Below, in pieces: positions 134 to 54,045 of a stretch of DNA of 64,000 nucleotides. Made by a program: the position numbers and the translations under genes. How positions within the stretch are numbered: position 1 is the stretch's first letter; every line of letters begins with the position of its first letter. The stretch lies in the NCBI GenBank assembly GCA_002399235.1, contig DHDH01000001.1, positions 24,594-88,593 of the forward strand. Reading direction: 5' to 3'. Source of the stretch: Firmicutes bacterium UBA4881. Lineage in GTDB: Bacteria; Bacillota; DTU065. Under the pieces are notes generated by a model. It was not told where the DNA came from. It did not search any database and saw only the letters and a list, made by a program, of their open reading frames with translations.

Positions 134-1312
134 GTGAGTGAAGAACGCAACTACTATTTTGTTAAAGATGGTAGGCCAGTAGAAGATTCACCTTATGTTA
201 GGCAACAAATTGTAGCTTTAATGAAAGAGCGTAACGAAACAGGACTAGTTTTAGTAGGTTACGAAGAACAAGCTACATCAGTTGGTGTTCCGGTGGATGC
301 TTTACAAGCAGTAGAACTTTTTGTTTCTGCGGGTCTTGATGTTGGTCAGGCCGGTGCTTGCACTCTACCTCAACTATCTTTTATGGCTAAAAATCTCGGA
401 GCTTCTGCTTGCTATGTAGATGATTCCGTTTGCTACTTAGATAAGGGTGGTGGATATCTAGATGGCAAGATGGAATTAAAACGAATTGAAAAAAAACCTA
501 GGGGTAAATTAATGCGTTTTGAGATACAAAGAGAATATATTAGACATCTTCGTAAAGAGATTGCAACAGATAGACTCCATAATATAGCTTTAGCAGTAGG
601 TGGCTTAAATCCCAAATTGTTAAGTCTTCTTGCACAGATTATACCACTAAAGGGCCTTTGGCGAGTACGCTCAGAAGCCTCACCATCATTAAGCCAAGTG
701 GCAGAATCAGTTGTAAGATCTAGAGCTGATGTCGGTATAAAACTTAATTCAGCAGGAACAAAAGTTGAGTTTGTTGACGAAAATGGAACAACAGTTACAA
801 CTGAAGAAGCTTCAGCTTTAATAGTTCGCTATCTCAAAGAACAAGGAAGTTTAAACGGCAAAGTAGCCAGAAGATGGAATGTATCACGCTTCTTTGATCG
901 GGTGATGGAGAAAACAGGAATTACAATAGAAGAAAACGCCGACTTTTCAGTCGGCGACGAGATTGTTTTTCAACCCCACTTAAATATCGGGGATGGATTG
1001 TGGTTAGGTCTTATAATCTGCGAAATTGTTGCAGTAGGGGAGAGACCTCTATCAGAGCTAATAAAAGAAATGCATAAAGTAGTACCAAAAAGAGAAAGTA
1101 AGCAACTTAAAGCTAGTGAAGGACAGTTAGATAGATTCTTACGCAAGTTAACGGGGAAAGCCTTATTAGCTAGAGATAGAGGAGAATTGCAAATAGATGG
1201 AGATATTATCTCTTGGCTAAAAAATAGCCAATATAAGTACGACGTTTTTTTAGATGGTGATCGTTCTAGACTGCACTTTTGGTTAGAACAGTTTCCCCAA
1301 GATACTTTGTAA
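134..1312 (+). CDS. hypothetical protein with a degenerate phosphoglucomutase/phosphomannomutase-like domain
   Basis: GTG start 6 nt after AGGAGGTGG. The segment GLVLVGYEEQATSVG..AGLDVGQAGACTLPQLSFMAKNLGASACYV follows the domain-I pattern of PGM/PMM enzymes, but I could not find the catalytic (T/S)ASHNP serine loop. The family assignment is from memory only. Confidence 0.3.
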   Translation: MSEERNYYFVKDGRPVEDSPYVRQQIVALMKERNETGLVLVGYEEQATSVGVPVDALQAVELFVSAGLDVGQAGACTLPQLSFMAKNLGASACYVDDSVCYLDKGGGYLDGKMELKRIEKKPRGKLMRFEIQREYIRHLRKEIATDRLHNIALAVGGLNPKLLSLLAQIIPLKGLWRVRSEASPSLSQVAESVVRSRADVGIKLNSAGTKVEFVDENGTTVTTEEASALIVRYLKEQGSLNGKVARRWNVSRFFDRVMEKTGITIEENADFSVGDEIVFQPHLNIGDGLWLGLIICEIVAVGERPLSELIKEMHKVVPKRESKQLKASEGQLDRFLRKLTGKALLARDRGELQIDGDIISWLKNSQYKYDVFLDGDRSRLHFWLEQFPQDTL

Positions 1313-2123
1313 TGAGAAATTGCACCAGACGGTTAAGCTCTTTAGGAGCTTCCGTTCTGGATACATAATAATTGATAAAGATGTGCTTGTCAGGGCGTGT
1401 ACGAGGGACTGGGAATGTTTTAAGTAGGTGGTTAAAGATCATTTTACCACTTACTTTTTGCTGCCATAGTTCAGGCTTGGTTGATAGCAACTCGAGGCGG
1501 AGAAAATACTCATCAGGATCAGGCAAACCTTGATTACGACAAAAGATTAAAATGTTTTGATATAGTTTTTCTGGTTCCAAATGCGGTGAGTCTTTATACT
1601 CAAGTTGCATAGCTTGACCATATTTTTGTCCTAAGTCCCAAGCAAGCCAGTTATAAGCTGCTGCTGGTAGGTAGGCTTTAAATATATTGCCGATGCTTTC
1701 TCTACATTCTTCGACACTCCGCCACCCTTTAGGTAATTTATTACGCCAAAATAGCAAAGCTATTTCATACCAACCTTCAGGTTCTAATAAGTAATTTTCT
1801 AAAGTATAACGTTCAGTGCGATAGATATGATCAGTATAATTTGGTTCGTATTGGTTTTTAACTATTAATTGGGTAGAAAAGTCACGGTCAATAATTCCAG
1901 CGACATGTCTTTGTTCTCGTTCTATAAACAAAGTCTCAACAGCATCAATAACTTTTGAATAACCATCTTGGGGGTAAAAGGTAATTAGATGGGCTAAATC
2001 CCCAAACCATTGGGAATAAACCCATTCATCATCTCCATTGTGAACACCTTCGATAATTACCGATAATCCCTTGCCAGAACGAATCTTAAGTAGTAGCTGA
2101 TTTAAAGAAAGATAATTCATCAA
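1266..2123 (-). CDS. Toprim-like / DUF4435-like protein, predicted nuclease partner of the upstream ATPase
   Basis: 285 aa. Acidic motifs in Toprim order: E in VIIEGVHNGDDEW, DxD in GIIDRDF, then ENYLLEPEG. Its ATG lies inside the ATPase stop (ATGA overlap at 2120-2123). Domain recognition is from memory, not a profile search. Confidence 0.5.
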   Translation of the reverse strand: MMNYLSLNQLLLKIRSGKGLSVIIEGVHNGDDEWVYSQWFGDLAHLITFYPQDGYSKVIDAVETLFIEREQRHVAGIIDRDFSTQLIVKNQYEPNYTDHIYRTERYTLENYLLEPEGWYEIALLFWRNKLPKGWRSVEECRESIGNIFKAYLPAAAYNWLAWDLGQKYGQAMQLEYKDSPHLEPEKLYQNILIFCRNQGLPDPDEYFLRLELLSTKPELWQQKVSGKMIFNHLLKTFPVPRTRPDKHIFINYYVSRTEAPKELNRLVQFLITKYLGETVLTKSAV

Positions 2124-2935
2124 TGTTCACCTCCGCAAAGGGAGTCAAGACTAAAGACTTCTGTATCAGAGGAAGCTCTTACGATCTCCAAGGAATGAGT
2201 TGCTATTAATAGTTGACAGTTATGTTTTTTTAAGTAATTTGAGATTAAGTGATAAAGACGTCTTTGTAGGGTGGGATGTAGACTAATTTCGAACTCATCA
2301 ATTATGACAAGAGAATTAGGTTTCATATGTTTTTCGATTAAAGTTAAAAGAATTAATGCTTGTTTTTCACCAGCAGGAAGTTTTCTCAGGGGAATGGGTG
2401 TATTGTTGCTTGCTGAAGCCGAAAGAGTATAGTGATTTTCTACATATTCAAGTGTTCTATTCTCAAAAAATAAGCTGGGTAAATGAGGAATACCTTTTTG
2501 CAAATATAGTTCGGGGCTATCTTCTTGAGGATGATATTTATAACCAAATACCGTTTCTTTTGGTTGTTCGTGGACTTCAAGTAGATATCTTTCAGCTGGA
2601 AAGTAAAGATAATATGGTATTAGGTTAGGATCACCACTAATTGTTAAATGGCCATCGTCAAGGGTTATCTCAAGATTATTATCATCACTATCGGCAAATT
2701 CTAGCGAAACAGTGGCTCGGGTTTGGACAAGTTCTGTAAACAGGTCATCTTTTATGCCTTTGGAACCTTTTATGAGTGATGCCACAACTTCTAAGATAGT
2801 ACTTTTACCAGAAGCATTAGTACCTACTAAAATGATACGTGAATTAGTCATCCCTGTGTAAGGGTCTAAAAAAGATAGCACAGTACTTTTATGAAAATTA
2901 CGGAATCCTGATATAGTAACTTGACTAAGTTGCAA
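2120..2935 (-). CDS. compact ABC-type (AAA_15/AAA_21-like) ATPase
   Basis: Walker A GTNASGKST; Walker B/D-loop LVIIDEFEISLHP; H-loop IATHS. Likely start is TTG at 2935 (MQLSQVTISGFRNF, the typical ABC ATPase N-terminal strand), 7 nt after AAAGGAGTG. The ORF track instead uses an RBS-less in-frame ATG at 2965. Confidence 0.7.
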   Translation of the reverse strand: MQLSQVTISGFRNFHKSTVLSFLDPYTGMTNSRIILVGTNASGKSTILEVVASLIKGSKGIKDDLFTELVQTRATVSLEFADSDDNNLEITLDDGHLTISGDPNLIPYYLYFPAERYLLEVHEQPKETVFGYKYHPQEDSPELYLQKGIPHLPSLFFENRTLEYVENHYTLSASASNNTPIPLRKLPAGEKQALILLTLIEKHMKPNSLVIIDEFEISLHPTLQRRLYHLISNYLKKHNCQLLIATHSLEIVRASSDTEVFSLDSLCGGEH

Positions 2936-3320
2936 ATGAATCACTCCTTTAAAAACAAGTAGCAAAAAGGTTCTTTAGGAACTAAAATAAATTGGAGTGT
3001 GCCCCAATGGTTTGAACAATAACAGGTAGTTTTTTATATACTAGTATTATGCCTAAAGTAACCAGTCTTTGCTTTTGATCACATTGTATCAGAAGGGCAG
3101 GAGGTCCTCAAATTTAATTTCGTTAAAATGTCTTTGTACTAAGATGTTTTTCGTTTCTAATTAGAGATTTGACTTTTAAGTCCATAATAAAAGGTATGGA
3201 GTAACAAAAGTTTGTATAACATTAGTTTCTAACATCTAAATATGAGTCAAAGAGTTTATTACCCTCTTAAATTTATATACATAAGTTATACTAACCTTTC
3301 TAGAAAGGGAGGCGTAAAAT

Positions 3321-3552: not shown

Positions 3553-3720
3553 AGAGAGGTAAATGGCAGAAAAAAGGTAAGATTTTAATAGTCGACTAAA
3601 TACATTGATTGGAGAAGGAATAGAAGTACTTACCGATAATAGCGAAATGTATTTAACTGGTAAACTCAGAGCGGTTTATGACGGTTATATTGTGTGGAAC
3701 AAGATAATGGGAAAGTAACA
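3553..3720 (+). pseudogene. small ORF interrupted by an in-frame TAA (MAEKR*DFNSRLNTLIGEGIEVLTDNSEMYLTGKLRAVYDGYIVWNKIMGK)
   Basis: GGAGAGAGG RBS before ATG 3553. In-frame TAA at codon 6. The downstream 45 codons look like protein (possibly a small Sm-like/DUF-type fold). An intact 37-aa version could instead start at TTG 3605. Confidence 0.25.
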
Positions 3721-3799
3721 TACATAAATACTAATAAGATTGTTTACTTTATAGCAAACAAATAAGCAATAACTTATGAATAAGTTATCTATAAGATGG

Positions 3800-5828: not shown

Positions 5829-6755
5829 ATGGGAGCTCAGCGAGGTAAAATCTTGGTTGTAGTAATTGGTATAGTTTTAAGCATAACTTTGTCGTCATGT
5901 AGAGCCTATGAGAAAGGGGACTTACGTATCACGGATATAGAGATATTCAAAGATACGCCTGCATGGGAATTAGCTCTAGCAGTGAAAAGACAGAGTACCA
6001 AAAGTATAGAAAAGACAATCAGAACTAATCCGGGTTTGCTTAACTTCCAGGAGCCACATTTTGGTGCAACTCTGCTTCTTTGGTCTGTTGGCATGGAGAA
6101 ATATAATTCAGCAAAGAAGCTGCTAGAATTGGGAGCTGATCCTGATATTGCATCAACTTATGATGGAACTACCCCTTTATTTCAGGCATCCGGTTTTTCG
6201 TGGGTGAGTGTGGCTTGGTTTCCGAATGAAGATCCTAAGTATGTTAAACTCCTGTTACAGTATGGAGCAGATCCAAATACTACATTTAAAGGACATAACA
6301 AACCTGGCATAAACAATATAGTAGAAAGAGGAACCAGTGCATTAATGCACTCTGTGGGAGCAGGTCTAGAGAAAACTAAGGCGCTAGTAAAGGGGGGCGC
6401 TGATCTTAATTACAAGACTGTAACGGGAAGGACTGCGGCTGTGAGAGCGTTATTCTGGGGTGAGCCTAAATATGCATACTATTTAATCGCTGAGTGTAAG
6501 GCTAGGGTTACTGAGCCTATTTGGGCTAGAGAAGAGTGGACTCGGGCAAATAATGCTCCGGTGTACCCGGTAGAATTACTGCGAGATTGGGTTTTTAAGA
6601 TAGGCTCAAAAGAACATCAAATGAAAATGGAAATAGTAGAGGAATTTAAAAGGCAGGGAGTCGATTATTGGGGAACCGAAGTCCCTAAAAGTAGGTTCGA
6701 GCAGATAAAAAAACTATATCCAGATACCTGGGAAGAGTATATTCAAAAATACTAA
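5829..6755 (+). CDS. ankyrin-repeat lipoprotein
   Basis: Signal peptide with a lipobox (ITLSSC). At least three ankyrin-like repeats (LLELGADPD, LLLQYGADPN, LVKGGADLN). RBS AAAGGTGG. The gene looks GC-richer than its surroundings. Confidence 0.6.
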   Translation: MGAQRGKILVVVIGIVLSITLSSCRAYEKGDLRITDIEIFKDTPAWELALAVKRQSTKSIEKTIRTNPGLLNFQEPHFGATLLLWSVGMEKYNSAKKLLELGADPDIASTYDGTTPLFQASGFSWVSVAWFPNEDPKYVKLLLQYGADPNTTFKGHNKPGINNIVERGTSALMHSVGAGLEKTKALVKGGADLNYKTVTGRTAAVRALFWGEPKYAYYLIAECKARVTEPIWAREEWTRANNAPVYPVELLRDWVFKIGSKEHQMKMEIVEEFKRQGVDYWGTEVPKSRFEQIKKLYPDTWEEYIQKY

Positions 6756-9463: not shown

Positions 9464-10705
9464 TTATAGCGAAGGTACAGGTAAGTTAGGTTCCCATCTT
9501 TTCAAGTTTAGATACTTTAACGCACATTCCATATGCGCATTTTGTACATTAAGTAGAGCCAGCTCCTGCTCAATTAACGATATCTTTAATTCTTTTGGAG
9601 ACACTAAGCCTTTTTGATAGCCTTCATTAGCTAGCTGGTGCATTTTTGTAGCATCAGCTAGATTTTCTTTTGCTTTTAACCAGGCTTGGCGTGATTTTGA
9701 ATAAGCTTGTAAAGCTAATTTGGCCTCTGCGTAAAGGGCCTCTTTTTTTTGTGTGAAAAGTAGTTCTTGTTTTTGCAACTCCAGTTCGGTTTTTTGAATC
9801 TGCTTAGCTAAGCTTGGATTAAAGAGAGTCTGACTAAACTCTAATAATACACCGTAGTTGAAACTAGTTTTATTTGCTGACAAATCAATGCTGGTTCCAA
9901 GCTGAGGCTTTTTATTTTGCTTAAGCTTATGGAGCTCTTCTTTAGTTATTCTAAGAGGTTCTTCTAATTGTTCAATTAATCTAGTATCTACATTAAGAGT
10001 ATCGAGTGTTGGCCATTCATAAGAAAAGTTATAGATTAAAGTGTCTAATTCAATGCAACCTAGTTCAGTTTCTAAACTAGATTCCGCTTCATTTAGCTTT
10101 GTTTGTAGTTCTATGACTTCCTGCTGCTTAAGCTGTTCATTTTGGACAGCTTCTTTATAGTCACTAAAAGAGATTAAACCTAAAGAATAGTTTTTCTCGC
10201 TAACTAACAAATTTTCTTTCCCTAACTGCCACGTTTTTTCTTTTATTGGTAATTCTAATCTGCAAGCAAGTACAGAGAAAAATTGTTTGGTGATATTAAG
10301 CTCATTTTCTTGTAGCAAGGGAATACTTTGCTTGGCGCTTTGGTTACTTTTGGGTGGGAAAAGATTAAAAGATACTTTGAGAGAGAGACTTGGATTAGCT
10401 AAATTAAATGATAGGTTAGCATGGGAAATGGGGTTGGCGTTTGTGCTCATATTCAGTAAAAGGGATGTATTATTTTTACTGCCATTAGAAGCACCATTTA
10501 GAGCAATCTGGGTATTGTTATAAAGTTGCTCTCCAAAAGAGAGTGGGGTAGAATTAATCGCATTAATTTGCTTTTCTAAAGCTAATATTTGATTATTAAT
10601 ACCTGATTCGCTTAACAAGAGAGCTTCACTTAGGGTTAAGGCTACAGCAGAGGTACTAAAACAAAGGGTAAGAAGACATAGAAGCAATCGTTTTATTTTA
10701 TTCAT
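9464..10705 (-). CDS. TolC-like outer-membrane efflux protein (OEP family)
   Basis: Signal peptide MNKIKRLLLCLLTLCFSTSAVA. Long coiled-coil-rich sequence typical of outer-membrane factor proteins. Last gene of efflux operon 1. Confidence 0.65.
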   Translation of the reverse strand: MNKIKRLLLCLLTLCFSTSAVALTLSEALLLSESGINNQILALEKQINAINSTPLSFGEQLYNNTQIALNGASNGSKNNTSLLLNMSTNANPISHANLSFNLANPSLSLKVSFNLFPPKSNQSAKQSIPLLQENELNITKQFFSVLACRLELPIKEKTWQLGKENLLVSEKNYSLGLISFSDYKEAVQNEQLKQQEVIELQTKLNEAESSLETELGCIELDTLIYNFSYEWPTLDTLNVDTRLIEQLEEPLRITKEELHKLKQNKKPQLGTSIDLSANKTSFNYGVLLEFSQTLFNPSLAKQIQKTELELQKQELLFTQKKEALYAEAKLALQAYSKSRQAWLKAKENLADATKMHQLANEGYQKGLVSPKELKISLIEQELALLNVQNAHMECALKYLNLKRWEPNLPVPSL

Positions 10706-11738
10706 GCGTGTCCACCTCTAAAGCTTCTGTAGGATACCCTAATTCAAGTAAAGAGATGGCTAGAGAAAGTGAACCATTTTTATACCCTAATTCACCAAGT
10801 GTTACAGCCTCAGAAGCTTCTTCTAGCTCACTTAGAGAGATGAGCCCTAAAGAAAATTGTTCCTTAGCTTCGACTAATTTTGCTTGTGCCTCTTCCCATT
10901 CTCTTTGCATATTATCTATTTGGCGTAAGCGATCTTTTAGTTGAAGTTGCTCCTGTTCTGCTAAAAGATGAATTTCATTTTCTTTAGTTATTAAATCTAA
11001 CTTAAGTAACTCTAACGCGATCTCTTGTTCTCTAATGGTTAAGGCAGCTTCTTCTTGTAATTTTGCCATAGACAAAACCAAAGATTGAGCTTCAATTTGG
11101 TTTTGTAGTTTTTGCAGAGAAGGCTCTTTCTTGATAAGAAGCAGGTGTAACTCATCTTTATCAGGTAATTTTGGTAAGGTAACTGTAGGTATTTCTAGTT
11201 CGAAGTCATGGCCAAGAGGTAGACCGGTCAATTGATTTAACTTCATGATTTGAAGTTGCAGAGCATTTTGGGCTTGGAGCAGAGCCTCATCAGCAACTCT
11301 AACTTTGTTTTTTTGCTGCTCTAATTCAAACTTAGAGCTAAGCCCCTTTTCGTAGCGAAATTCAGTTAAAGTTAAGTTGCGTTTTTCTTTAAGTAGCTGC
11401 AGTTTTTTTTCTGTGAGGTTAGTTTTTGCTTCGATAAAGTTTAAGGCTTGTTTTTTGGTATCAATTTTGATTTGATTTTTCATAGTTGTAAGCGATTTTT
11501 CTGCTTCATACCAGGCTTTTTCTTTTTCTAAAAGAGTTTTTTGAGGGAGAGTATACTCTTTATGCTTAGCTCTATTATAATCAATGGCTGTTTGTTCTAA
11601 GATTAGTTCAGCTTTCTTTAAGGAGATGCTATTAGCTATAGCCATTTTTTCAAATTCCAGAAGAGAATAAGCCCCAGCAGATAAAGAGAGTAAGACTAGC
11701 ATTAGACTAAGAAGTGCTAGCCTAGATCTTTTTCTCAT
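10698..11738 (-). CDS. TolC-like outer-membrane efflux protein (OEP family)
   Basis: Probable start is ATG 11738 (MRKRSRLALLSLMLVLLSLSAGA signal peptide) after TAGGAGG. Coiled-coil repeats. Overlaps the next TolC-like gene by 8 bp. Confidence 0.6.
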   Translation of the reverse strand: MRKRSRLALLSLMLVLLSLSAGAYSLLEFEKMAIANSISLKKAELILEQTAIDYNRAKHKEYTLPQKTLLEKEKAWYEAEKSLTTMKNQIKIDTKKQALNFIEAKTNLTEKKLQLLKEKRNLTLTEFRYEKGLSSKFELEQQKNKVRVADEALLQAQNALQLQIMKLNQLTGLPLGHDFELEIPTVTLPKLPDKDELHLLLIKKEPSLQKLQNQIEAQSLVLSMAKLQEEAALTIREQEIALELLKLDLITKENEIHLLAEQEQLQLKDRLRQIDNMQREWEEAQAKLVEAKEQFSLGLISLSELEEASEAVTLGELGYKNGSLSLAISLLELGYPTEALEVDTHE

Positions 11739-11751
11739 AATGATAAACCTC

Positions 11752-12474
11752 CTAGTTAGCATGGAGAAGATTAGCAACATACTCGACAGAATTACGTTCT
11801 GTAAGCATTGCATCAAGAGAGATTAAGCCATCTTGAAGTTTCAATAGTCTTTTAGCTCTGGAGCCAACATTAGCATCATGGGTGACTAATACTACTGTTA
11901 CTCCTTCTTCATTTAACTGGCAAAACATGTCTAGAATCTCTTCTGATTGTGCACTAGCTAGGTTACCAGTAGGTTCATCACCTAAAATTAGTGTTGGGTC
12001 ATTGGCGAGAGCTCTAGCAATTGCTACCCTTTGTTGTTCGCCACCAGAGAGTTGATTAGGATAATGCTTGGTTCTTTTTTCTAAACCAACTTTCTTTAAA
12101 AGTTCGTAGCCACGATCTTTTTGTTCACTTTTGGGTACCTTAGCATACATCATTGGTAAGCAAACATTATCTAGAGCATTAAGTTCTGGCAATAGATTGT
12201 AGGCCTGAAAAACAAAGCCAAAGTGCTCGTTACGAATACGGGAAATTTCTTTATCACTAAGGCCGGTGATATCAGTACTTTCGAGAAGATATTCGCCACT
12301 ATCAGGCAGATCAAGGCAACCAAGTATATGCAATAAAGTCGATTTACCTGAACCAGAGGGGCCCATAATAGCTAACATTTCGCCTCTATCTATCTTTAAG
12401 GAGACACCTTTCAAGGCCTCTACCAGGTTATTACCAAGACGGTAGATCTTTTTAATCTCTTTTAATTCAATCAT
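11752..12474 (-). CDS. ABC transporter ATP-binding protein (MacB/LolD-type)
   Basis: Walker [10 protein letters not shown], signature [14 protein letters not shown], Walker [13 protein letters not shown]-loop VTHD. Start ATG 12474 after GGAGGCAGAGCAA. Its ATGATTGA start overlaps the HlyD stop. Confidence 0.85.
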
Positions 12475-13762
12475 TTGCTCTGCCTCCTTCAAGATTAACG
12501 ATGATCTCTTTTTGATCTTTATAAGCTTCATAGGAACTTGTAATCACAATATCGCCTTGATTTAAGCCTCTTTTTATTTCAATTAAATTACCATCATAAG
12601 CGCCATAAGTAACATCTGTGCGCAAAGCTTTTCCATCTATGATCTTATAGACGAACATATTCTGACCACTAGTAACATAAGGGCCACGAGGCAAACAAAT
12701 AATATTATCTCTTCTGCCAGTTTCGATTTCAGCTTGAGCTTCGGTAGTAGGTAAAATAAAACCCGGATCAGCTAAAAAAACAATATCGGCTAGGATATGA
12801 GCGCTACCTTTATCAGCACTTATGGCATAAGATAATTTTTCAATAACCCCTTGGTGGGTACGACCAGCAATTTTCACATTTGCTTTCATACCTTCATTAA
12901 CACGATCTGCTTCTTGGGCTGTGATCTTTACTTCGACAAAAGGGTTATCAACGGTAACAAGTTTAAGAAGCAAGGCACCAGCATTAATCTCTTCGTCAGT
13001 TTTTACGGCTATTTCCAGGACTTTACCAGAAAAAGGAGCGATTAGAGTGTTTTCTTGGCTGATTTTTTCTAACTCAGCTAACTTTTCAGTAGTAACTCGA
13101 ATCTGAGTAGTGGCAGCATCGATGGCTAGGGAATTAGTTAGTTTAGTTTTTTCAACATTTTTTTGTTTAACAAATAATTCTTCTTTTGCTGTGAGTAAGG
13201 CACTTTGAGCTTCTTCTAGAGCTCTTTTACTAGTTGTGCCTAAGCTATACATCAGTTCTTTTTCTTCAAGGTTTTCTTGAGCATTCCGGACTGCTTTTTC
13301 TTGTTCACGTATAGACCACTCGATCTTTTGCAACTCTAAGTCAGCATCAATTTTCGCTTTTTCTAGTTCTACCTTGGCTTTAGCTAAAAGTTCTTTTTGC
13401 TCTTTAAGGCTATTTTCCAGTTCTGGAGAGGTTAACTTTAATAAAAGGTCTCCTTTTTTCACTTCATCACCAGAGTTTATATAAACATTATTAATCTTTC
13501 CTTTATAACGAGAAGTAGGAGTCCAACTTTCTTTAGCTTTAACACTCCCTGTAGCTCGAACAAATTCTCTAAACGTAGCTTCTTTCACCGTAGTATAAGT
13601 ATAATTATCTAGTTTGTAGACCTTGTTTTTCGGGATGAAAATATATGCTGGTATGGCTATTAAGAAGGCTAAGACAACTAAAACAAAAATCGTTAAACTG
13701 AAATCTCGTTTTGATTTTTTAGGCCTAGGTTTATTGATGATAATGGGTTTATCTTTGTGCAT
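12467..13762 (-). CDS. HlyD/MacA-family periplasmic adaptor (membrane fusion protein)
   Basis: N-terminal TM anchor. A biotinyl/lipoyl-like half (GDEVKKGDLLLKL), a long coiled coil, and a C-terminal β-barrel domain. Start ATG 13762, 6 nt after AAAGGAGGA. Confidence 0.75.
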   Translation of the reverse strand: MHKDKPIIINKPRPKKSKRDFSLTIFVLVVLAFLIAIPAYIFIPKNKVYKLDNYTYTTVKEATFREFVRATGSVKAKESWTPTSRYKGKINNVYINSGDEVKKGDLLLKLTSPELENSLKEQKELLAKAKVELEKAKIDADLELQKIEWSIREQEKAVRNAQENLEEKELMYSLGTTSKRALEEAQSALLTAKEELFVKQKNVEKTKLTNSLAIDAATTQIRVTTEKLAELEKISQENTLIAPFSGKVLEIAVKTDEEINAGALLLKLVTVDNPFVEVKITAQEADRVNEGMKANVKIAGRTHQGVIEKLSYAISADKGSAHILADIVFLADPGFILPTTEAQAEIETGRRDNIICLPRGPYVTSGQNMFVYKIIDGKALRTDVTYGAYDGNLIEIKRGLNQGDIVITSSYEAYKDQKEIIVNLEGGRAND

Positions 13763-13774
13763 TTTCATCCTCCT

Positions 13775-15004
13775 TTAATCGCGTAATGATTCTACTGGCG
13801 AATATTGAGCGGCTTGGTAAGCGGGGTAGATGCCAAATAAACCACCCACAATGCTTGCTAAAGCAAGAGAAAGCAAAGCGGCTTGCCAGGAAAGAGAGCT
13901 TTGTGTAGTTTGCATGTTGATATACATAAAGTTTAATATCTTACCGACGTTGAAGAAGCGAGATACTATAGCAGCTAGAATTAGCCCCATAAAGCCACCG
14001 ATGTTAGAGAGCATGATTGATTCATAAAGCATTTGGCCAAAGATGGTTCCTTTTGTCGCACCCAGAGCACGACGTAGTCCTATTTCTCTTGTTCTTTCTA
14101 AAATGTTTACCAACATAATGCTTAAGATGCCAATTGAACTTACAACTACCGCAGCAAAAGCAAGGATGCCTAATATTTTTAGAAAGCTATCTGTTGAACT
14201 TTTAATTTGATTTAATAAGGTTTGGGCAGTATCGATAGTTACTTTAGCTTCAGGACCACATTCTTGGAAGACAAGTTCTTCAATGGCTGATTTGATCTCG
14301 GTAAATTGGTTTTTCTCTATTCTTAGCGAAAATTCTACAAAACTCTCACTAATCATATAAGACGGAGGAGTAAGCACCATATTGACTGGTCCTAAAAGCA
14401 TAGTGATTGTAGGGGGTAGTTCTTTAAAAACACCAGTAACTAGGTAATTAGTGGGTTCGCTATCTTTGCTCGTAGTTACACCAATAGTCTCACCTAAAAC
14501 ATCAGTTGTGCCAAACAGGGTTTTAGCTAGGGCTTCGGAAATAACCGTTTTATTATCTTTTTCTTCAGCTTCTGTATAGAAGGATCCGTTAATAAATTCG
14601 AGGGGAAATGTTTGATTAAAGGATGCTCCTGCACTAAAAGCTCCTACAGGTCGATAGAGATTTTTATCTACTAATAACAAATCATGAAAATAATTTTGCG
14701 AAGAAATTCCTAAAATGCTATTAGTATTGTTCGCTAATTCTTGGAGCAACTTTGAACTTAACCGCTTATTCCCCATGGCGTGAATTATATTACCATCTTC
14801 CATTTTTTCTTCTTCAAAGATCGATACTTGCAGAAATTCTTCGCTTGTTTGGGAAGCGGTATTGTTTATCATATCGGTGAGGCCAAAATGAATATTAAAG
14901 ATTAGAGCTGCTGCTAAAACTCCTAAAGCGATCTGTAAGGTAGTCAAGATAAACCTCAACGGTCGCTTTTTAATCATAAGCAGGAGGAATTTAAAGTTTT
15001 CCAT
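13775..15004 (-). CDS. ABC transporter permease, MacB-like periplasmic domain plus FtsX 4-TM domain
   Basis: Start ATG 15004 after GAGGAGG. N-terminal TM, large periplasmic domain, C-terminal FtsX-like helices ending ..AAQYSPVESLRD. Confidence 0.75.
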   Translation of the reverse strand: MENFKFLLLMIKKRPLRFILTTLQIALGVLAAALIFNIHFGLTDMINNTASQTSEEFLQVSIFEEEKMEDGNIIHAMGNKRLSSKLLQELANNTNSILGISSQNYFHDLLLVDKNLYRPVGAFSAGASFNQTFPLEFINGSFYTEAEEKDNKTVISEALAKTLFGTTDVLGETIGVTTSKDSEPTNYLVTGVFKELPPTITMLLGPVNMVLTPPSYMISESFVEFSLRIEKNQFTEIKSAIEELVFQECGPEAKVTIDTAQTLLNQIKSSTDSFLKILGILAFAAVVVSSIGILSIMLVNILERTREIGLRRALGATKGTIFGQMLYESIMLSNIGGFMGLILAAIVSRFFNVGKILNFMYINMQTTQSSLSWQAALLSLALASIVGGLFGIYPAYQAAQYSPVESLRD

Positions 15005-15020
15005 GTTATACCTCCTCAAT

Positions 15021-16295
15021 TTATTCTGCACGTAAAGCATCAACAGGGTTGATACGTGAAGCTTTAATAGCTGGATAAATACCAAAAATTAAACTTACCG
15101 TAAGACTAGCACCTAAACTGAGAAAAACAGTAGGTAAAGAAATGGCGAATATTTCTCCTAATGATTTTAAAAGTGGTGTAGCTAGAGCAACTAATCCTAA
15201 ACCAACAAGACCACCTAAAAGGCCTAAGCTTAGCGATTCAATTAAGAACTGCCAAAAAATATTGCTTTTACTAGCACCGATAGCTTTCGAGATACCAATA
15301 CTTTTAGTTCTTTTAAGAACCCGGGCCAACATTAGGTTGAGAATATTCAAAGAAGCAATAAACAAAGCCAAGGATGCTAGGCCACCTATAAAGATTAACA
15401 TCGGTTGCATTGATTTTAAGAAGAACTGCAATTCTTCACGGGCACTTTCTACAGACAAGGAATCACCATACCTAGCTAGGAGGTAGTCCTTTACTTTAGC
15501 TGTTGGATCGTCATTTTTAGGTACTAAGGTAATACTGCTAAAAATGGGATCGTTTGTTTGGTTGCAATTATGTCTAGGCGAGAAGATGTATCTATTCATC
15601 TCGCTTCTAAACCAGGAAAACTGAGTATAACGTTCGGGTATTTCTTCGGGTACCTTTTTCAAAACGCCAATTACAGTAAGAGGTGTATCGATGTGTTCAA
15701 GTTCAATTAATTGGCCAAGAGGGTCTTTATCAGGGAAGAGATCTTGAGCTAAATCGTAACCTATTACAGCAACTGCTTCTTGATTTTTAAAATCGTCAAG
15801 TGTATAAAAGGAACCCTTTTCTAACTCGCCATTTAAAAAGGTAATTAAATTAGGCAAAGTCCAAATAATTGTTAACCAATTTGGATCAGGTCCACTGCGC
15901 CAATCAGTTTCATTCATTGGTGGAGCTCCCTTTAGTCTACCTCCTTGATGTTCATAGGCGAGGATAGTATCAATCTCGGGTATAGCTATTTGTAAATCTT
16001 CGATAAAATCTAAAGAAAGTTTTACTTCTTCAGCTTCAATGCTGCCTACTAGCTGAGCTGGAATTTTATTACCTGATTTATAAAACGTCCTATAATCGTC
16101 AACTTTTTGTTGAATTGTAATGGTGTTTTGCTCGGGGTCGGACATATTTAATTCTCTAGTTCCTTTAATAACTACAGTACCGACAACTGAAAGAACAGCT
16201 ACTCCTAGGGAAATAGCTAATATAATTAAAAGAGATTCAAAAAAACGTGAACGTATCTGTCTAGATGTCCAGGAAATAAGTTGACCTAATCCCAT
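15021..16295 (-). CDS. ABC transporter permease, MacB-like periplasmic domain plus FtsX 4-TM domain
   Basis: Start ATG 16295 after AAAGGAGTGAGAGT. Same architecture as its neighbour. C-terminus ..ASRINPVDALRAE. Confidence 0.75.
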   Translation of the reverse strand: MGLGQLISWTSRQIRSRFFESLLIILAISLGVAVLSVVGTVVIKGTRELNMSDPEQNTITIQQKVDDYRTFYKSGNKIPAQLVGSIEAEEVKLSLDFIEDLQIAIPEIDTILAYEHQGGRLKGAPPMNETDWRSGPDPNWLTIIWTLPNLITFLNGELEKGSFYTLDDFKNQEAVAVIGYDLAQDLFPDKDPLGQLIELEHIDTPLTVIGVLKKVPEEIPERYTQFSWFRSEMNRYIFSPRHNCNQTNDPIFSSITLVPKNDDPTAKVKDYLLARYGDSLSVESAREELQFFLKSMQPMLIFIGGLASLALFIASLNILNLMLARVLKRTKSIGISKAIGASKSNIFWQFLIESLSLGLLGGLVGLGLVALATPLLKSLGEIFAISLPTVFLSLGASLTVSLIFGIYPAIKASRINPVDALRAE

Positions 16296-16406
16296 ACTCT
16301 CACTCCTTTGGAACAAGTATACAATATTAAACTGCCCTACACCATTTTTAATCCTTACAGGTCAGATAATAGTCTTACAATTTTGCAAGGTATTTTTTAC
16401 CTACAT

Positions 16407-21386: not shown

Positions 21387-23786
21387 GTGGATGTAGAAGG
21401 TTTTCTCAAAGAAATTACCAATTCACGCCACTATAGAGAGCAAATTCAAACTGTGAAAACTTTACCTACTCAGAGACCAAAGTTTGGAGAGGTAGAGCTA
21501 GGTGAGGTTATTGAGCCTTTATTAAAAAAAGCTAATATAAAGAAACTCTATACTCACCAAGCGACAGCACTAGATAAAGCCAGAAAGGGCGAAAATTTAG
21601 TTGTTGTATCTGGCACAGCCAGTGGTAAGACAATGTGTTATAATTTACCAGTTTTAGAAACTCTTCTCACTACGGACGACACAACAGCCCTTTATATCTA
21701 TCCTACTAAAGCCTTAGCCCAGGATCAGCAGCGAAAAATAAGAGAATTAGCCCCAGAGTTAGAGTTAGGGACCTTTGATGGTGATACACCCCCTAACGAT
21801 CGCAGAAGGCTCCGGGATAGGGGTAGACTGCTTTTAACTAACCCTGACATGCTAAGTGGTTATATTCTCCCACACCATGATTCTTTTGGCCAATTTTTGA
21901 GCAAGTTACGTTATGTAGTAATCGATGAAGTCCACTCCTATCGAGGGGTCTTCGGTTCTCATCTAGCTTTAGTCATTAACCGGTTAAAAAGAATTGCCCA
22001 AAAATATAACACTAAAATTCAATTCATAATGACTAGTGCTACTATCAATAATCCCTTAGAGTTAGCAGAATCACTCATTAAAGAACCTGTTACTTTAATC
22101 GATAATGATGGGGCTCCTAAAGGACGGAAGACCTTTGTTCTTTGGAATCCTCCATGGGATGATAGGGAGGGGCAACGTTTAAGTGCTAATGTGGAGGCTA
22201 ACAGGCTTTTTGTTAAATTAATTAAAGAACGGATTAGAACTATCGCTTTTGTTAAGGCCAGGGTAACTGCTGAACTTTTATACCGTTATGCTGCTGATGA
22301 GCTAAGTAGATTCGGTTTATCACAAATGGTTAAAGCATATAGGGGCGGTTATTTGCCTGAAGATAGAAGGCAGATAGAAGAGGATCTTTTTACAGGTAAA
22401 CTTCTAGGTGTAACCAGCACAAGTGCTTTAGAATTAGGTATTGATGTGGGTGGCTTAGATGCCTGTCTTATTGTAGGCTATCCTGGGTCGGTAGCTTCTA
22501 CTTGGCAACAAGCAGGACGAGCTGGTAGAGGTAAAAACGATTCGTTAGTTATACTTATTGCTAACTCTGATCCTATCGACCAGTTTATCGTACAACACCC
22601 CGATTACTTCTTTGAGCAATCTCCAGAGAGTGCTGTTATAGATCCAGATAACCCTTATATCTTACTTAGTGAGCTTAGAGCTATGGCTTATGAGTTACCC
22701 CTAAGAAAGGATGAAGTTATTAATATTAGTGAAAATGCCCCAGCGGTAACCCAGATACTTACTGAAAGTGGGGAGCTATCCCCAAGGAGGAATCAGTTCT
22801 TTTGGATTGGTAGGGGTTACCCACCCCAGGATATTAATCTAAGAAATATCTCCGAAAACACCTACAGTATAGTGGAAAGAGTCGATAACCAAACTGTAGC
22901 CATAGGGAGTATTGACGAACTGTCTGCTTTCACTCAACTTCACGAAGAAGCAGTTTATATGCATAATGCCGATACTTATTTAGTGAGAGAACTTGATTTA
23001 AAAGGTAAAATAGCCTATGTAGAAAGAGCTGATGTAGATTACTTCACCCAGTCTATAACTGAAAGAAGAGTCTTGGTAAAAGAAGAGCGCTTAAACCGCA
23101 ATTATCAAGAAGCACGTCTAGCTTTTGGTGAACTAGATGTTACTTTTATTACCTATATGTTTCGTAAGATTAAATTTTATACCAAAGACTCTTTTGGTTT
23201 TGGTAGTATAAAGTTACCACCATCAACTTTAGAAACCTGTGGTATCTGGTTAGAGCTACCTTCTAAAGTAGTAGGTGATGTAATTAAATATGGCAAAGAT
23301 CCCCGTGAAGGACTTTTAGGCATTGGCAATGTCCTATCGTCTTTAATGCCACTTTATATTCTTTCTGATCCTGGTGATGTAGGTTCGGCTGTTGATAGTG
23401 CTAACACAGGTAAACCTGTCCTCTTCCTTTTTGATCGTTTTCCAGGTGGAATTGGTATCACAGAGAAAGCTTTCCCTTTAATCGAAGAACTATTAGAAAA
23501 AGCTTTAAATCTTATCAAAGCTTGTAACTGCGAACGTGGCTGTCCATCTTGTGTAGGAGCACCGCGAACCAGAGAAGATCTTCTCGATCCAGACTCTTCA
23601 CCACGAGGAAAACTTCCTGATAAGGATACGGCGCTAATAATTTTGCATAGTTTATTAGGCCTTGAAGAGTATATACCCCAAAGTGTTGAAGAAGAAGAGA
23701 TAGTTTGGCAGGTTAAGCCATTACCTGAGAATACAGAAAATAGATTAAGACAGATGATAGGTAAAATAAAAGAGAAAGGGCGATAA
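21387..23786 (+). CDS. mrfA: DEAD/DEAH-box helicase with C-terminal DUF1998/MZB zinc-binding domain (MrfA/YprA-like)
   Basis: Motif I GTASGKT, DEVH (VIDEVHSY), helicase-C motifs (QQAGRAGRG), and a C-terminal four-Cys cluster CNCERGCPSCV. Confidence 0.75.
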   Translation: MDVEGFLKEITNSRHYREQIQTVKTLPTQRPKFGEVELGEVIEPLLKKANIKKLYTHQATALDKARKGENLVVVSGTASGKTMCYNLPVLETLLTTDDTTALYIYPTKALAQDQQRKIRELAPELELGTFDGDTPPNDRRRLRDRGRLLLTNPDMLSGYILPHHDSFGQFLSKLRYVVIDEVHSYRGVFGSHLALVINRLKRIAQKYNTKIQFIMTSATINNPLELAESLIKEPVTLIDNDGAPKGRKTFVLWNPPWDDREGQRLSANVEANRLFVKLIKERIRTIAFVKARVTAELLYRYAADELSRFGLSQMVKAYRGGYLPEDRRQIEEDLFTGKLLGVTSTSALELGIDVGGLDACLIVGYPGSVASTWQQAGRAGRGKNDSLVILIANSDPIDQFIVQHPDYFFEQSPESAVIDPDNPYILLSELRAMAYELPLRKDEVINISENAPAVTQILTESGELSPRRNQFFWIGRGYPPQDINLRNISENTYSIVERVDNQTVAIGSIDELSAFTQLHEEAVYMHNADTYLVRELDLKGKIAYVERADVDYFTQSITERRVLVKEERLNRNYQEARLAFGELDVTFITYMFRKIKFYTKDSFGFGSIKLPPSTLETCGIWLELPSKVVGDVIKYGKDPREGLLGIGNVLSSLMPLYILSDPGDVGSAVDSANTGKPVLFLFDRFPGGIGITEKAFPLIEELLEKALNLIKACNCERGCPSCVGAPRTREDLLDPDSSPRGKLPDKDTALIILHSLLGLEEYIPQSVEEEEIVWQVKPLPENTENRLRQMIGKIKEKGR

Positions 23787-24720: not shown

Positions 24721-25432
24721 CACAGATTATTGGTAGGTAATTATTTTCTGGCTCTAAAATAAAGAGCCTACCAAGTAACTTAATCTGAACTTGAAAATTA
24801 GGGAATAACCTAGCTTTAGTGGCTAAGATGGTTTGCTCATTTTCTTCTGGAGAAAGACCTGCTTTAGCTAAAGCGTGTTTAAAATTGGTCAGTTGTTGCT
24901 TACTTTCTCTTAACCACTCAGCATCTAATTCAATATTAGCTTGGATGTGATACAGGGCTAAATTTAGAGCTTCTTTATACGAGATTTTTTTCTTTACTAC
25001 AGGACCAGGGTCTGCAGCTAAATAGTTTCCCAGTTTAGCTTGTGAAACAGTACCCGAAATTAAATTAATGAGTAAAGAAAAATGCAAACGTGGTGCTTTT
25101 GGTTGAGGAGAGATAAGTTGCAACCAAAGATAAAGATAAGGAATATAACTTTCCCTAGTTTGGTTCTGAGGTTTGGGGTCTGGTATTTTCTTGACATAGG
25201 CTGTTGTGAAAGCTCCTTTGGCTAGACAAGAATCTAAGACTTGGTAAAAGAAATTAGTGCCAGGGTAAAAACCGATGGTGCCTTCGTTAAGTTCGGCTTC
25301 TTTTAGAGTATAACTAGTTTCGTTAGATTGATCATTGTGCGACCACTGAGCTATAACCAGATTACCCTCTTTTTTGTACTTATATTGCAAATAATCTAGG
25401 TAATCTAAAAAAAACTGTTGGTACTTTTCCAT
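24716..25432 (-). CDS. hypothetical protein coupled to the SNF2 helicase (YqhG-like position)
   Basis: No recognisable domain. Its start overlaps the helicase stop by 1 bp. Confidence 0.5.
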   Translation of the reverse strand: MEKYQQFFLDYLDYLQYKYKKEGNLVIAQWSHNDQSNETSYTLKEAELNEGTIGFYPGTNFFYQVLDSCLAKGAFTTAYVKKIPDPKPQNQTRESYIPYLYLWLQLISPQPKAPRLHFSLLINLISGTVSQAKLGNYLAADPGPVVKKKISYKEALNLALYHIQANIELDAEWLRESKQQLTNFKHALAKAGLSPEENEQTILATKARLFPNFQVQIKLLGRLFILEPENNYLPIICE

Positions 25433-27090
25433 TAGCTAGTTAACTCCTTTTCCATGGGTGGGAGTAGTAGTTCAGAGATAATATATTGAGTGAGATCTTC
25501 GCCTAAACACTCTTCATCTAAAGAGAAAACATCGGTGAAGATCTGGAGTTTTTTATACAAGAGTTCCAAGATTCTTTCCTCTATGGTGTCTTTAGTAAAT
25601 AGATTAAGGACTTCTACTGGTTCTGTTTGGCCTAAACGATGAACTCTACCAATTCTTTGTTCTAATTTCATAGGATTCCAGGGTAGATCATAGTTAATAA
25701 TTCGGTGACAAAATTGTAAGTTGAGTCCTTCACCGCCAGCTTCGGTTGCTAATAGTACTTGAGCATCTCTCCTAAAACGTTCTCTAGCCCATTCTTTGCG
25801 CGAAGAAGATAACGAGCCATCGTAAGTTACAAAACGAATATTTCGTTTAGCTAGTTCGTTAGCTAAGAACTTTTGGGTTGCTACATATTCTGTGAAGACT
25901 ACGATTTTGTCTGGACATGTACTTAACTTATTAAGAAGAAAACGGGTTTTAGCATTGGTTTTTACTGAAACACCCAGCTGAACAATTTCACCTAAAAGGG
26001 GGTCTTCTGACTCACTTAGCAACTTTTCTAAGGTTAGTAGAGCGGCAAAAACGCTAGAGCAAAGTTCTTTTTGCAGAGTAACTAAAAGTAGTTGATTTTG
26101 GTGTTTTCTTTGTAAGGACAGTTTTATGTATTCGGAAAGGGCTTGGTATAAGAGCCTTTCCGAATCCTCTTGTTCACACCCAGCATGGGTTACTTGGCGG
26201 GGAGGAAGCTCTAATAGAGCTTCTTTACGTGTAGTGCGAATTAAAAATGGTTTTAAAGCTTTTTTTACAGAATCAAGGTTAGGGTTATCACCTAAAGCAT
26301 ACCGATGCGAAAAATCCTCTAAAGAACCTAATACCCCAGGTGCAATTAACTGTACTAAATTAAAAAGTTCTCTTAAGTTGTTTTGCATAGGTGTAGCAGT
26401 AATTAATAGTAGATGGCGTTTTTTTAATTGAGAGATAAATTTGTAAGCTTGCGTTTTATTGTTTTTTAAGTGATGAGCTTCATCAACAATAACCATATCC
26501 CAAGAAACTTCTTTGATTAAAGAAGCATGAGGCTCTTTTTTGGCTGTAGCTAGACTAGCTATAAGTAAAAAACTATTTTGCCAATCAAGTAAGGTCCGTT
26601 GTCTATAAACCTGTAGGCTAAGCTTCTGGCGTAGTTCCCATTCCCATTGCCTAGTTAAAGAAGCTGGTGTAAGGATTAAAACTTTATTTAATAAACCTCT
26701 CTCTAAGTATTCTCTAAGAATTAAACCTGCTTCAATTGTTTTACCTAAACCTACTTCGTCGGCAATTATAGCTTGACCATTCATTTCTTCAATTACGCGG
26801 CGTACACATTCAATTTGGTGAGTGTAAGGGATTAATCCTAAACGTTTAAAGTTTTCTTGCAGACGAGTTAAGGAAAATAAGTCAAAATCGTTGTTGGTTG
26901 TTTCTAACAAGACATTTAAAGCTTTATATGCTAAAAGAAATAAGTTAAAGTCCTTGTTTTGTTTACTGTAGCGCAAGCCTACACTGGCTGCATCCAGATC
27001 AAGTTTTAGTTCTAAATCATCATTAGCTAAGGTGAGAAATCTAGGTTCTCTTAAGCCATCGCCAGGCATAATATAGCGAATTTTAGCCAA
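25432..27090 (-). CDS. SNF2/RAD54-family helicase (compact, YqhH-like)
   Basis: SNF2 motifs: ADEVGLGKT (I), VIVDEAHHLKN (II), helicase-C QRIGRVHRLGQT (VI). 552 aa. Confidence 0.8.
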   Translation of the reverse strand: MAKIRYIMPGDGLREPRFLTLANDDLELKLDLDAASVGLRYSKQNKDFNLFLLAYKALNVLLETTNNDFDLFSLTRLQENFKRLGLIPYTHQIECVRRVIEEMNGQAIIADEVGLGKTIEAGLILREYLERGLLNKVLILTPASLTRQWEWELRQKLSLQVYRQRTLLDWQNSFLLIASLATAKKEPHASLIKEVSWDMVIVDEAHHLKNNKTQAYKFISQLKKRHLLLITATPMQNNLRELFNLVQLIAPGVLGSLEDFSHRYALGDNPNLDSVKKALKPFLIRTTRKEALLELPPRQVTHAGCEQEDSERLLYQALSEYIKLSLQRKHQNQLLLVTLQKELCSSVFAALLTLEKLLSESEDPLLGEIVQLGVSVKTNAKTRFLLNKLSTCPDKIVVFTEYVATQKFLANELAKRNIRFVTYDGSLSSSRKEWARERFRRDAQVLLATEAGGEGLNLQFCHRIINYDLPWNPMKLEQRIGRVHRLGQTEPVEVLNLFTKDTIEERILELLYKKLQIFTDVFSLDEECLGEDLTQYIISELLLPPMEKELTS

Positions 27091-33877: not shown

Positions 33878-33896
33878 ACTTAGGAGGTGTATATCA

Positions 33897-35147: not shown

Positions 35148-35161
35148 GGGGTGAAGGTAAA

Positions 35162-36460: not shown

Positions 36461-37178
36461 GTTAGACAACATTGTCAAGCTATATTCATTAGGCGATAAT
36501 ATTATTCGAGCTTTAGACGGAGTCACTCTATCTATTGAACGTGAAGATTTTATCTCCATAATGGGCCCATCTGGTTCTGGAAAGTCTACGTTGTTACACA
36601 TTTTAGGTTGTTTAGATCTACCCACAAGTGGTGCTTATTATCTAGAAGATGTAGATATATCCCACCTAAGTGATAAAGAAATATCGCGAATTCGCAATCA
36701 GCATTTTGGTTTTATTTTCCAAGCTTATAATTTGCTTCCAGAGTTAAACGCTTTAGAGAATGTTGAACTACCGATGATCTACAAAAAGATATCCCTTAAA
36801 GAGCGGAAAGAAATTGCTAAATCATTATTAGACAAAGTTGGTCTAGCACATCGCATAAAGCACTTCCCCTCACAATTATCAGGTGGAGAGCAACAAAGGG
36901 TAGCTATAGCTCGTGCACTTGCTAATAATCCTACTTTGATTCTTGCCGATGAACCTACTGGTAATTTGCCTAGCGAACATGGTGAAGAGATTATGGAAAT
37001 GCTGTGTCAGTTAAACGAAGAAAGCTCTACGATAATAGTTGTCACTCACGACCATAAAATCGGTTCTTATGCTAAAAAACTAATTCGATTAAAAGACGGT
37101 TTAATCGTCTATGAAAACGAGATAACAGAACGTTTTTCAGCTGAATATGTCTCGAAAATTGCTGCTTCCACAGTGTAG
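36453..37178 (+). CDS. ABC transporter ATP-binding protein (MacB/LolD-type)
   Basis: [37 protein letters not shown]. Its ATGATTAA start overlaps the HlyD stop, the same junction as in operon 1. Confidence 0.85.
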
Positions 37179-37188
37179 GAGGATGAAA

Positions 37189-53808: not shown

Positions 53809-54045
53809 AAAATAAAAAAAAGAAACCGTCCCCCAGAAAGGGACGGTTAATACCGCGGTACCACCCTAGTTGCCCCCTAAGGGGCCACTTGATCCTTATA
53901 ACGGTAGGGAACCGAAGAAGGCTACTGAAAGTTCACCATCTTAGCTCTAGGGTGTACTTCATCTGAATTCTAGCTACCAGTTTACACCGACCACTGGCTC
54001 TCTAAAAGTCGAAGACAGACTACTCTCCCTGTCATTGCTTTATTC
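53809..54045 (-). promoter_or_regulatory. T-box riboswitch leader (Tyr specifier UAC) with terminator/antiterminator
   Basis: Minus-strand reading: sigma-A-like promoter TTGACG-17-TAGAAT; stem I with AGAGAG; specifier loop ..GAAGUACACCC (UAC followed by A); conserved T-box AACUAGGGUGGUACCGCGG (plus 53853-53871); terminator ACCGUCCC-loop-GGGACGGU followed by a U-run (plus 53809-53847). Confidence 0.85.

Follow-up and report, generated by a model that had tools for sequence, protein, structure and literature searches.

What is understood of PARIS comes from one Escherichia coli system, the AriA/AriB pair of the P4 satellite in strain B185, which served as our reference (PDB 8UX9, 8V45-8V49). 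Its ATPase AriA, of 464 amino acids (aa), forms a hexameric propeller whose pores bind phage triggers, with the element IS1 (residues 122-180) serving trigger recognition and IS2 (residues 242-289) hexamer assembly. The nuclease AriB sits over the AriA dimer interface via its first 53 residues, and ATP binding is required for trigger recognition and release (PMC11464382). Once freed, AriB forms dimers and cleaves tRNA through two-metal chemistry. Here we describe a pair of overlapping minus-strand genes, encoding an ABC-type ATPase and a DUF4435 protein, found in a 64,000-nucleotide stretch of Firmicutes bacterium UBA4881 (contig DHDH01000001.1; the whole stretch is called the window below). 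We lean towards the view that this locus is a divergent, minimal two-gene module of ATPase and Toprim nuclease of the PARIS type, that is, of class 4 of the OLD family. It has a fixed chromosomal position in a Bacillota lineage not yet cultured, that of UBA5301 and its relatives.

A coupled gene pair with the domains of PARIS

Mechanical open reading frame (ORF) calls place the ATPase at 2120..2965 and the nuclease at 1266..2123, both on the minus strand. Judging from the sequence, the ATPase start is likely TTG 2935, which gives a gene at 2120..2935 (minus strand) and a protein of 271 aa. A Shine-Dalgarno sequence, AAAGGAG (2944..2950, minus strand), lies 8 nt upstream of this TTG, and an equivalent Shine-Dalgarno and start, A-/G-rich and at the same distance, are kept in four lineages (L001, L005, L010, L012). 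The second gene (1266..2120, minus strand) encodes a DUF4435 protein of 284 aa with a predicted AriB-like arrangement of Toprim and helical domains. Residues are numbered throughout in the 271-aa frame for the ATPase and in the 284-aa frame for the nuclease.

The two genes meet at TTGATG (2118..2123, minus strand), where the ATPase gene ends in a TGA stop (2122..2120) that overlaps the start of the nuclease gene. Read on the minus strand the junction is CAT-TGA-TGA, which corrects the ATGA overlap given in the first-pass annotation of the window. The overlap is 1 nt (TGATG) if the nuclease starts at ATG 2120 and 4 nt (TTGA) if it starts at TTG 2123. Overlaps of 4 nt are found in relatives, as ATGA in L005 and L012 and as TTGA in L010. 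Because stop/start overlaps recur in these relatives, the comparison indicates that translational coupling of the ATPase and nuclease genes is real and conserved.

The published detection rule for PARIS calls for adjacent genes scoring at least 32 bits with AAA_15 or at least 27 bits with AAA_21, plus at least 27 bits with DUF4435 (Rousset et al. 2022, PMC9122126). In Pfam searches our ATPase scores 81.7 bits with AAA_21 (E=1.3e-22) and 75.6 bits with AAA_15 (E 7.7e-21), and the nuclease 36.3 bits with DUF4435 (cut-off 27, E 6.5e-9, covering profile positions 11-91 of 238 only). All three scores exceed the gathering scores, and the genes overlap. The family calls that the first-pass annotation had made from short motifs were right, and the motifs it quoted can be read in both genes. 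The PARIS pairing it named is supported as well: the best PADLOC model is AriB for the nuclease (1.3e-11) and AriA for the ATPase (5.9e-24), although the PADLOC AriA models are equal in length to the Pfam models AAA_21 and AAA_15 and are non-discriminating, with PtuA and AbiLi models scoring slightly lower. As the pair falls within the published domain-and-adjacency rule, defence-finding tools would probably label it 'PARIS'. An AAA_15/21-type ABC ATPase paired with a Toprim nuclease in separate adjacent genes is also what defines class 4 of the OLD family.

The nuclease resembles AriB in its predicted fold

The acidic residues of the nuclease lie in the motifs IIEG (E24, 2051..2049), IIDRD (D78 and D80, 1889..1881) and ENYLLE (E108, 1799..1797). 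Across 47 family sequences E24, D31, D78, D80, E108-N109-Y110 (the LENY motif) and K226 are invariant, and residues 21-60 are among the best-conserved stretches of the protein in the compact clade of closest relatives (82% pairwise identity). E24 corresponds to E26 of AriB, and mutating AriB E26 abolishes its nuclease activity and toxicity (PMC11464382).

A single-sequence phmmer search of the nuclease against the PDB returned nothing relevant, and a profile built from the 47 family members reached AriB, its sole match there, at only E 0.015; structure prediction was therefore needed. The profile alignment pairs RDF...YTLENYLL of the family with REF...HSLENYFF of AriB. The structure model (predicted local distance difference test, pLDDT, 92.8; predicted template modelling score, pTM, 0.89) consists of a Toprim core with four strands and, after it, a helical domain. 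When it was compared with the PDB by Foldseek, AriB chains were the sole significant matches (E 5e-6). The predicted structure thus shows an AriB fold with the Toprim acidic residues intact. NCBIfam holds no model for this protein.

The ATPase is a bare ABC head

The ATPase carries a Walker A motif (GTNASGKST, residues 38-46, with K44 at 2806..2804), a signature motif (LPAGEKQ, residues 186-192), the stretch VIIDEFEISLHP at residues 210-221 with the Walker B pair D213/E214 (2299..2294), and ATHS at residues 245-248 with the H-loop H247. Every catalytic ABC motif (Walker A Lys, Walker B Glu, signature and H-loop) is thus retained at the level of sequence. K44 and E214 align to AriA K39 and E393. 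AriA is also the top PDB sequence match (464 aa, E 5.9e-7), aligned at residues 31-58 and 181-256 alone, the first segment being Walker A and the second running from the signature motif to the H-loop.

The small size of the ATPase, pointed out in the first-pass annotation, holds at 271 aa against 464 aa for AriA, and the span from Walker A to the signature is 123 aa compared to 308 aa in AriA. Its AlphaFold2 (AF2) model (pLDDT 89.5) is a bare ABC head without long helices. AbiLi models of PADLOC match it at 1.2e-18 (in one stretch) and 6.1e-14, and are outscored by AriA-type and PtuA models. Between lineages, residues 61-140 are 27-46% identical and residues 181-260 are 62-87% identical.

The signature itself (residues 187-191, 2375..2363, minus strand) varies in the clade, reading LPAGEKQ in the lineage of the window and L001 and IPAGEKQ in L012/L017. 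At the position of the Ala in both, L005, L010 and the longer relatives carry a Ser, the canonical residue (LPSGEKQ/LPSGEQQ).

A rare subfamily under purifying selection

Word-indexed searches delimit a compact clade, in which the nucleases are 63-95% identical and the ATPases, 271-276 aa long, are 50-97% identical. Next, after a gap, come pairs with nucleases 29-36% identical and ATPases of about 340-395 aa, 25-30% identical over the full length. By alignment, these longer ATPases retain two segments lost in the compact clade: one of about 50 residues after the first beta-sheet lobe, and one of about 35 residues with a strongly conserved W.GSLEQLWVWQNYLDLE motif. An exhaustive HMMER search over 1.84 billion cluster representatives gave one match below E 1e-30, the compact clade itself, and nearly all of the next full-length matches were 320-480 aa long; a single other cluster among these representatives is as compact. 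The subfamily is rare: clustering at 90% identity leaves about 45 clusters.

The window is 99% identical to the metagenome-assembled genome (MAG) 'Firmicutes bacterium UBA5301'. Against a 95%-identical relative, the ATPase has a ratio of non-synonymous to synonymous substitution rates (dN/dS) of 0.07 and the nuclease one of 0.125, the same as for neighbouring genes. In every relative seen, the ATPase and DUF4435 genes occur together and are coupled. Both genes are therefore intact, coupled and under strong purifying selection.

A single inactivated allele was encountered. In L016, a 99%-identical strain from a fermentation metagenome, the nuclease gene (6788-7645, the counterpart of 1266..2123 in the window) has GGA>TGA at codon 76 (numbered from the TTG start), a stop that falls just before the IIDRD motif; the ATPase gene is intact and coverage is about 5x only. 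A 74-aa nuclease member (P0255), found on two contigs (ENA, Logan) that may come from the same sample, matches this allele. A nonsense allele in the nuclease beside an intact ATPase fits a costly effector whose loss is tolerated. In the GTDB representative contig of UBA5301 (L009:11133-12125), a run of N within the nuclease gene inflates the ORF to 330 aa; we rejected the apparent 45-aa insertion there, the run being an assembly gap.

Evidence for vertical inheritance and for a limited likeness to AriA

Several results weigh against a PARIS-type, defensive reading of the pair, some of them concerning the proteins themselves. The similarity of the nuclease to AriB, at about 14% identity, is as remote as the profile E value given above implies, and PHROGs holds no match for it. 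In the PDB sequence search ZnuC ties with AriA as a match for the ATPase (E 7e-7 vs 5.9e-7), and Foldseek ranks PtuA first for the ATPase model, on which SMC and Rad50 heads also superpose: the ATPase alone is not specifically AriA-like. Both the alignment and the AF2 model leave it without coiled coil, IS1 or IS2. The trigger-sensing and hexamer elements of AriA are absent, and the PARIS mechanism is therefore not transferable whole.

Other such results concern where the pair is found. It occupies the same locus in five diverged lineages (window/L001, L005, L010, L012/L017 and L031), a count that leaves out a sixth lineage (the P0006 cluster) abundant in NCBI Bacillota MAGs. All compact-clade contigs with enough flank have it in the identical place, at the end of the array PriA-Def-Fmt-Zn peptidase-RsmB-Spo0A-385 aa-PGM-like. 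Between lineages the nuclease (DUF4435) is 67-69% and the ATPase 50-59% identical, compared to 65-67% for RsmB, 66-67% for Fmt, 72-77% for Def, 71% for PriA, 52-56% for Spo0A and 51-57% for the PGM-like protein. By these sequence comparisons the pair diverges at housekeeping rates, like RsmB, Fmt and PriA. The shared locus together with this housekeeping-like divergence makes a pattern of vertical descent from a common ancestor, and the accessory, patchy setting that the first-pass annotation had assumed does not hold for any relative sampled; each of them fits instead the conservation beside housekeeping genes which that annotation had named as refuting its reading. The relatives were mostly ascertained through the pair itself; among loci found via the PGM-like neighbour instead, 3/3 carry the pair (one genome, two metagenome), too few for a census.

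The opposite flank differs from one relative to another. It holds a DUF2935 gene and an ankyrin protein gene in the window, and in relatives either an ABC transporter with a MazE/AbrB-like gene or a GFO_IDH_MocA oxidoreductase, just beyond which L013 has an IS21-like element. With the array side fixed and the other flank variable, the pair is the constant edge of a variable region.

Relatives with the 340-395-aa ATPase also lie among housekeeping genes. L022, L026 and L030 share a co-directional run of Mrp/ParA-FeS-GCV_T-DUF309-ATPase-DUF4435-DUF4149-RluA-like pseudouridine synthase, in which stops and starts overlap, the pair is 54-56% identical and its neighbours are 42-80% identical. This run looks operon-like, and the lineages are probably of Chloroflexota type. 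In Caldilineales the context is atp operon-mreB-pair-P-type ATPase, and in another lineage the pair adjoins YggS/YggT/YfiH. Across eight context types, no recognisable defence or mobile gene stands directly beside the pair. A tblastn search of 50,697 phage records and 72,556 plasmid records turned up no relatives, and IMG/VR gave no match to the one peptide pattern scanned, a search of limited sensitivity. The pair and its nearest relatives thus behave like core chromosomal genes despite their 'defence' domain pairing.

A proposed mechanism and its rivals

On balance we expect the pair to work as a PARIS-like growth-arrest nuclease that is released by a signal. By analogy with PARIS of E. coli, the ATPase would form an ATP-dependent head-to-tail dimer that keeps the nuclease inactive, until a signal alters the state of the ATPase and the nuclease is released. 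The freed nuclease would dimerise and cut RNA, most likely specific tRNAs, by two-metal catalysis, and translation and growth would stop. The signal could be a phage protein, as in defence or abortive infection, or an endogenous cue. Defence or stress-triggered growth arrest is only modestly favoured, and an anti-phage role for the pair is no more than plausible. With coiled coil, IS1 and IS2 missing, there can be neither a hexameric AriA propeller nor trigger-binding pores. Since it is the nucleotide-binding heads that AriB contacts in PARIS, sequestration of the nuclease as A2B1 could still be within reach of an ATPase that is a head alone; the resting complex is probably this A2B1 core alone. 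Since the pores are missing, sensing must use another surface, for which residues 61-140, as the fastest-evolving part of the compact ATPase, would be the best candidate. A natural head-only ATPase that is evidently functional and long-lived lets one ask which parts of AriA are required for silencing and releasing the nuclease, and at what other place a trigger can be read.

The vertical pattern would also be expected of a domesticated housekeeping module, that is, an inherited, ATP-regulated nuclease whose task would be endogenous rather than immune: maturing RNA or controlling its quality, for example, or processing DNA or the chromosome. We regard this as a real if doubtful possibility. It draws on the single locus in five lineages with divergence equal to that of housekeeping genes, on the three neighbour-found loci that all carry the pair, on a wider subfamily that is co-directional and often stop/start-overlapping with housekeeping genes, and on the absence of the pair from the phage, plasmid and viral collections searched. 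A precedent exists in Cran1, an archaeal OLD-family ATPase-nickase conserved across an order and in its neighbourhood, which is essential to the cell cycle and apparently has no antiviral role (PMC12796447); the AriB active site, moreover, resembles that of the Toprim RNase M5. Yet the pair's neighbours differ between phyla, and its variable upstream flank, which includes a decayed gene in the window and, in L013, the IS21-like element, puts it at the edge of a variable region. The nonsense allele in one population argues against essentiality, the rarity of the subfamily is unlike what a general housekeeping role predicts, and the relatives were sampled mostly via the pair. Only tentatively would we extend such a role to the whole DUF4435/ATPase subfamily, compact and Chloroflexota-type together, as an inherited, ATP-gated Toprim nuclease that is not immune; its endogenous role would then be, just as speculatively, in the processing of RNA or DNA or at a checkpoint of development or stress. 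If this were true, the subfamily would be the bacterial split-gene counterpart of archaeal Cran1, and the 271-aa ATPase a minimal head-only unit sufficient to control an AriB-type nuclease. Should the function prove not to be antiviral, the pair would follow Cran1 as the second OLD-family enzyme known to have been taken into the service of cell physiology, and would be a warning against equating domain-pair matches with immunity.

We consider it unlikely that the pair is purely an addiction module of the toxin-antitoxin kind, in which the ATPase would serve as antitoxin only, its loss would be lethal and neither defence nor physiology would benefit. The PDB depositors do label AriA 'antitoxin', and AriA mutations that weaken its binding to AriB could be obtained only with the catalytically dead AriB E26A, which fits toxicity of freed AriB (PMC11464382). 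The tight translational coupling with the ATPase first, and the fact that the sole inactivated allele seen strikes the nuclease and not the ATPase, point the same way. However, addiction alone rarely holds both genes under purifying selection as strong as this (dN/dS 0.07-0.13) across genus-to-family-level divergence; one would expect the toxin to be inactivated and both genes then to decay. The pair is also absent from plasmids and other mobile elements, the setting in which addiction pays. It is very improbable that an orphan ABC-transporter nucleotide-binding subunit merely happens to lie beside an unrelated gene. The ATPase has the size of a transporter nucleotide-binding domain (NBD), ZnuC scores about like AriA (see above) and several NCBIfam transporter ATPase models match weakly, but all of these NCBIfam matches are far under their cut-offs. 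ABC_tran gives 21.9 bits, under its Pfam cut-off of 25, compared to 76-82 bits for AAA_21/AAA_15, there is no adjacent permease gene, and the pairing with DUF4435 and the stop/start overlap are retained in every relative, in two phyla. We rejected an orphan transporter NBD on the cut-off and the lack of a permease.

Flanking signals and other features of the window

A candidate promoter of sigma-70 type, TTGAGG-17-TACAAT with a TG that extends the -10 element, lies at 3083..3111 (minus strand), about 150 nt upstream of the ATPase start, as a pattern match only. A terminator-like hairpin with a T-rich tail (2991..3008, minus strand) sits in the ATPase 5' leader, between the candidate promoter and the Shine-Dalgarno. 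In the pattern scan, promoter- and terminator-like sites were no more numerous in the region than expected from shuffled sequences. Accordingly, the promoter is a weak lead and the hairpin may be a chance occurrence. An Rfam search of the flanks at a permissive threshold found tRNA-Pro alone.

At its 3' end the nuclease gene runs into the convergent PGM-like gene (134..1312, plus strand), and the two overlap 3' to 3' by 47 nt (1266..1312, both strands). A convergent overlap of 35-50 nt recurs in L001, L005, L010, L012, L017 and L031. The PGM-like protein (392 aa; encoded in L001 at 5478-6635) has weak phosphoglucomutase similarity (PGM_PMM_III, 3.8e-8), and GlmM models match it far under cut-off. 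The 385-aa protein whose gene abuts the PGM-like gene upstream has no Pfam match. The 385-aa and PGM-like genes always lie between Spo0A and the pair.

On the other side, the decayed gene fragments mentioned in the first-pass annotation are confirmed for one small gene, a 67-aa DUF6897-like pseudogene (3563..3762, plus strand) whose reading frame is broken by a stop at codon 6 and by a frameshift around 3691-3715. It is intact in L002/L003 and shortened to 49 aa in L001. Further along, the ankyrin-repeat protein (308 aa, 5829..6755, plus strand) has a hydrophobic, signal-like N-terminus and weak similarity, far under cut-offs, to models of Legionella Dot/Icm Ank effectors.

Elsewhere in the window, two paralogous six-gene clusters lie in inverted orientation (9464..16316, minus strand; 32579..39407, plus strand), each with two MacB/FtsX permeases, an HlyD-type adaptor, an ABC ATPase and two TolC-like outer-membrane efflux proteins (OEPs). 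These TolC-like OEP genes of the window, together with Spo0A in the relatives, suggest that the host is a diderm Bacillota bearing sporulation genes. An MrfA-like helicase with DEAD and MZB zinc-binding domains (21387..23786, plus strand) and an SNF2-family helicase (25432..27090, minus strand) are encoded a few kb apart. A T-box leader (158 bits, 53836..54044, minus strand) lies upstream of minus-strand genes at 51544..53792.

Comparison with known systems

In OLD and GajA (Gabija, P2/Ts OLD) the ATPase and the Toprim are joined in one chain, and in Septu and retrons the partner of PtuA is the HNH nuclease PtuB. PtuA, GajA and OLD all have long helical or dimerisation inserts, which are absent from the ATPase of the pair. 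We rejected Gabija and OLD of classes 1-2, the locus having two separate ORFs and no adjacent helicase gene. RecF/RecR was likewise set aside, as neither protein belongs by sequence to these families. Cran1 offers a precedent for the evolutionary behaviour of the pair, but it is a single fused polypeptide and archaeal.

AbiL of Lactococcus (AbiLi/AbiLii) likewise combines an ABC ATPase and a nuclease of Toprim/OLD type in two genes. The resemblance to AbiL raised in the first-pass annotation goes no further than the ATPase, where it is generic; the nuclease has no AbiLii match at E <= 1 among the PADLOC models. AbiLii and AriB have no significant sequence similarity (PMC13064643). Because the nuclease lacks AbiLii similarity, we rejected identity with AbiL.

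The relatives nearest to the pair are the longer pairs found in MAGs, those of Chloroflexota and others (Caldilineales GCA_019695115.1 is an example), whose nuclease of about 280-293 aa is annotated just as 'DUF4435 domain-containing protein'. They share with it the gene order, the stop/start overlap, the invariant nuclease residues and the housekeeping setting.

From PARIS the pair differs in its ATPase, which has about 185 residues fewer than AriA between Walker A and signature and lacks the sensor and scaffold architecture of coiled coil, IS1 and IS2. It also differs in being chromosomally fixed and vertically inherited, whereas PARIS is carried on satellites, prophages and plasmids; the patchy distribution over satellites, prophages, plasmids and hotspots that is typical of defence is not seen among the relatives sampled. 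With PARIS it shares the two-gene cassette, ATPase first and DUF4435 Toprim nuclease second, and, in the ATPase, conservation of the Lys in Walker A and the Glu in Walker B. The nuclease keeps its catalytic Glu along with the DxD-type and LENY motifs, in what is predicted to be the architecture of AriB: an N-terminal Toprim with catalytic Glu and acidic ligands, followed by a helical DUF4435 part.

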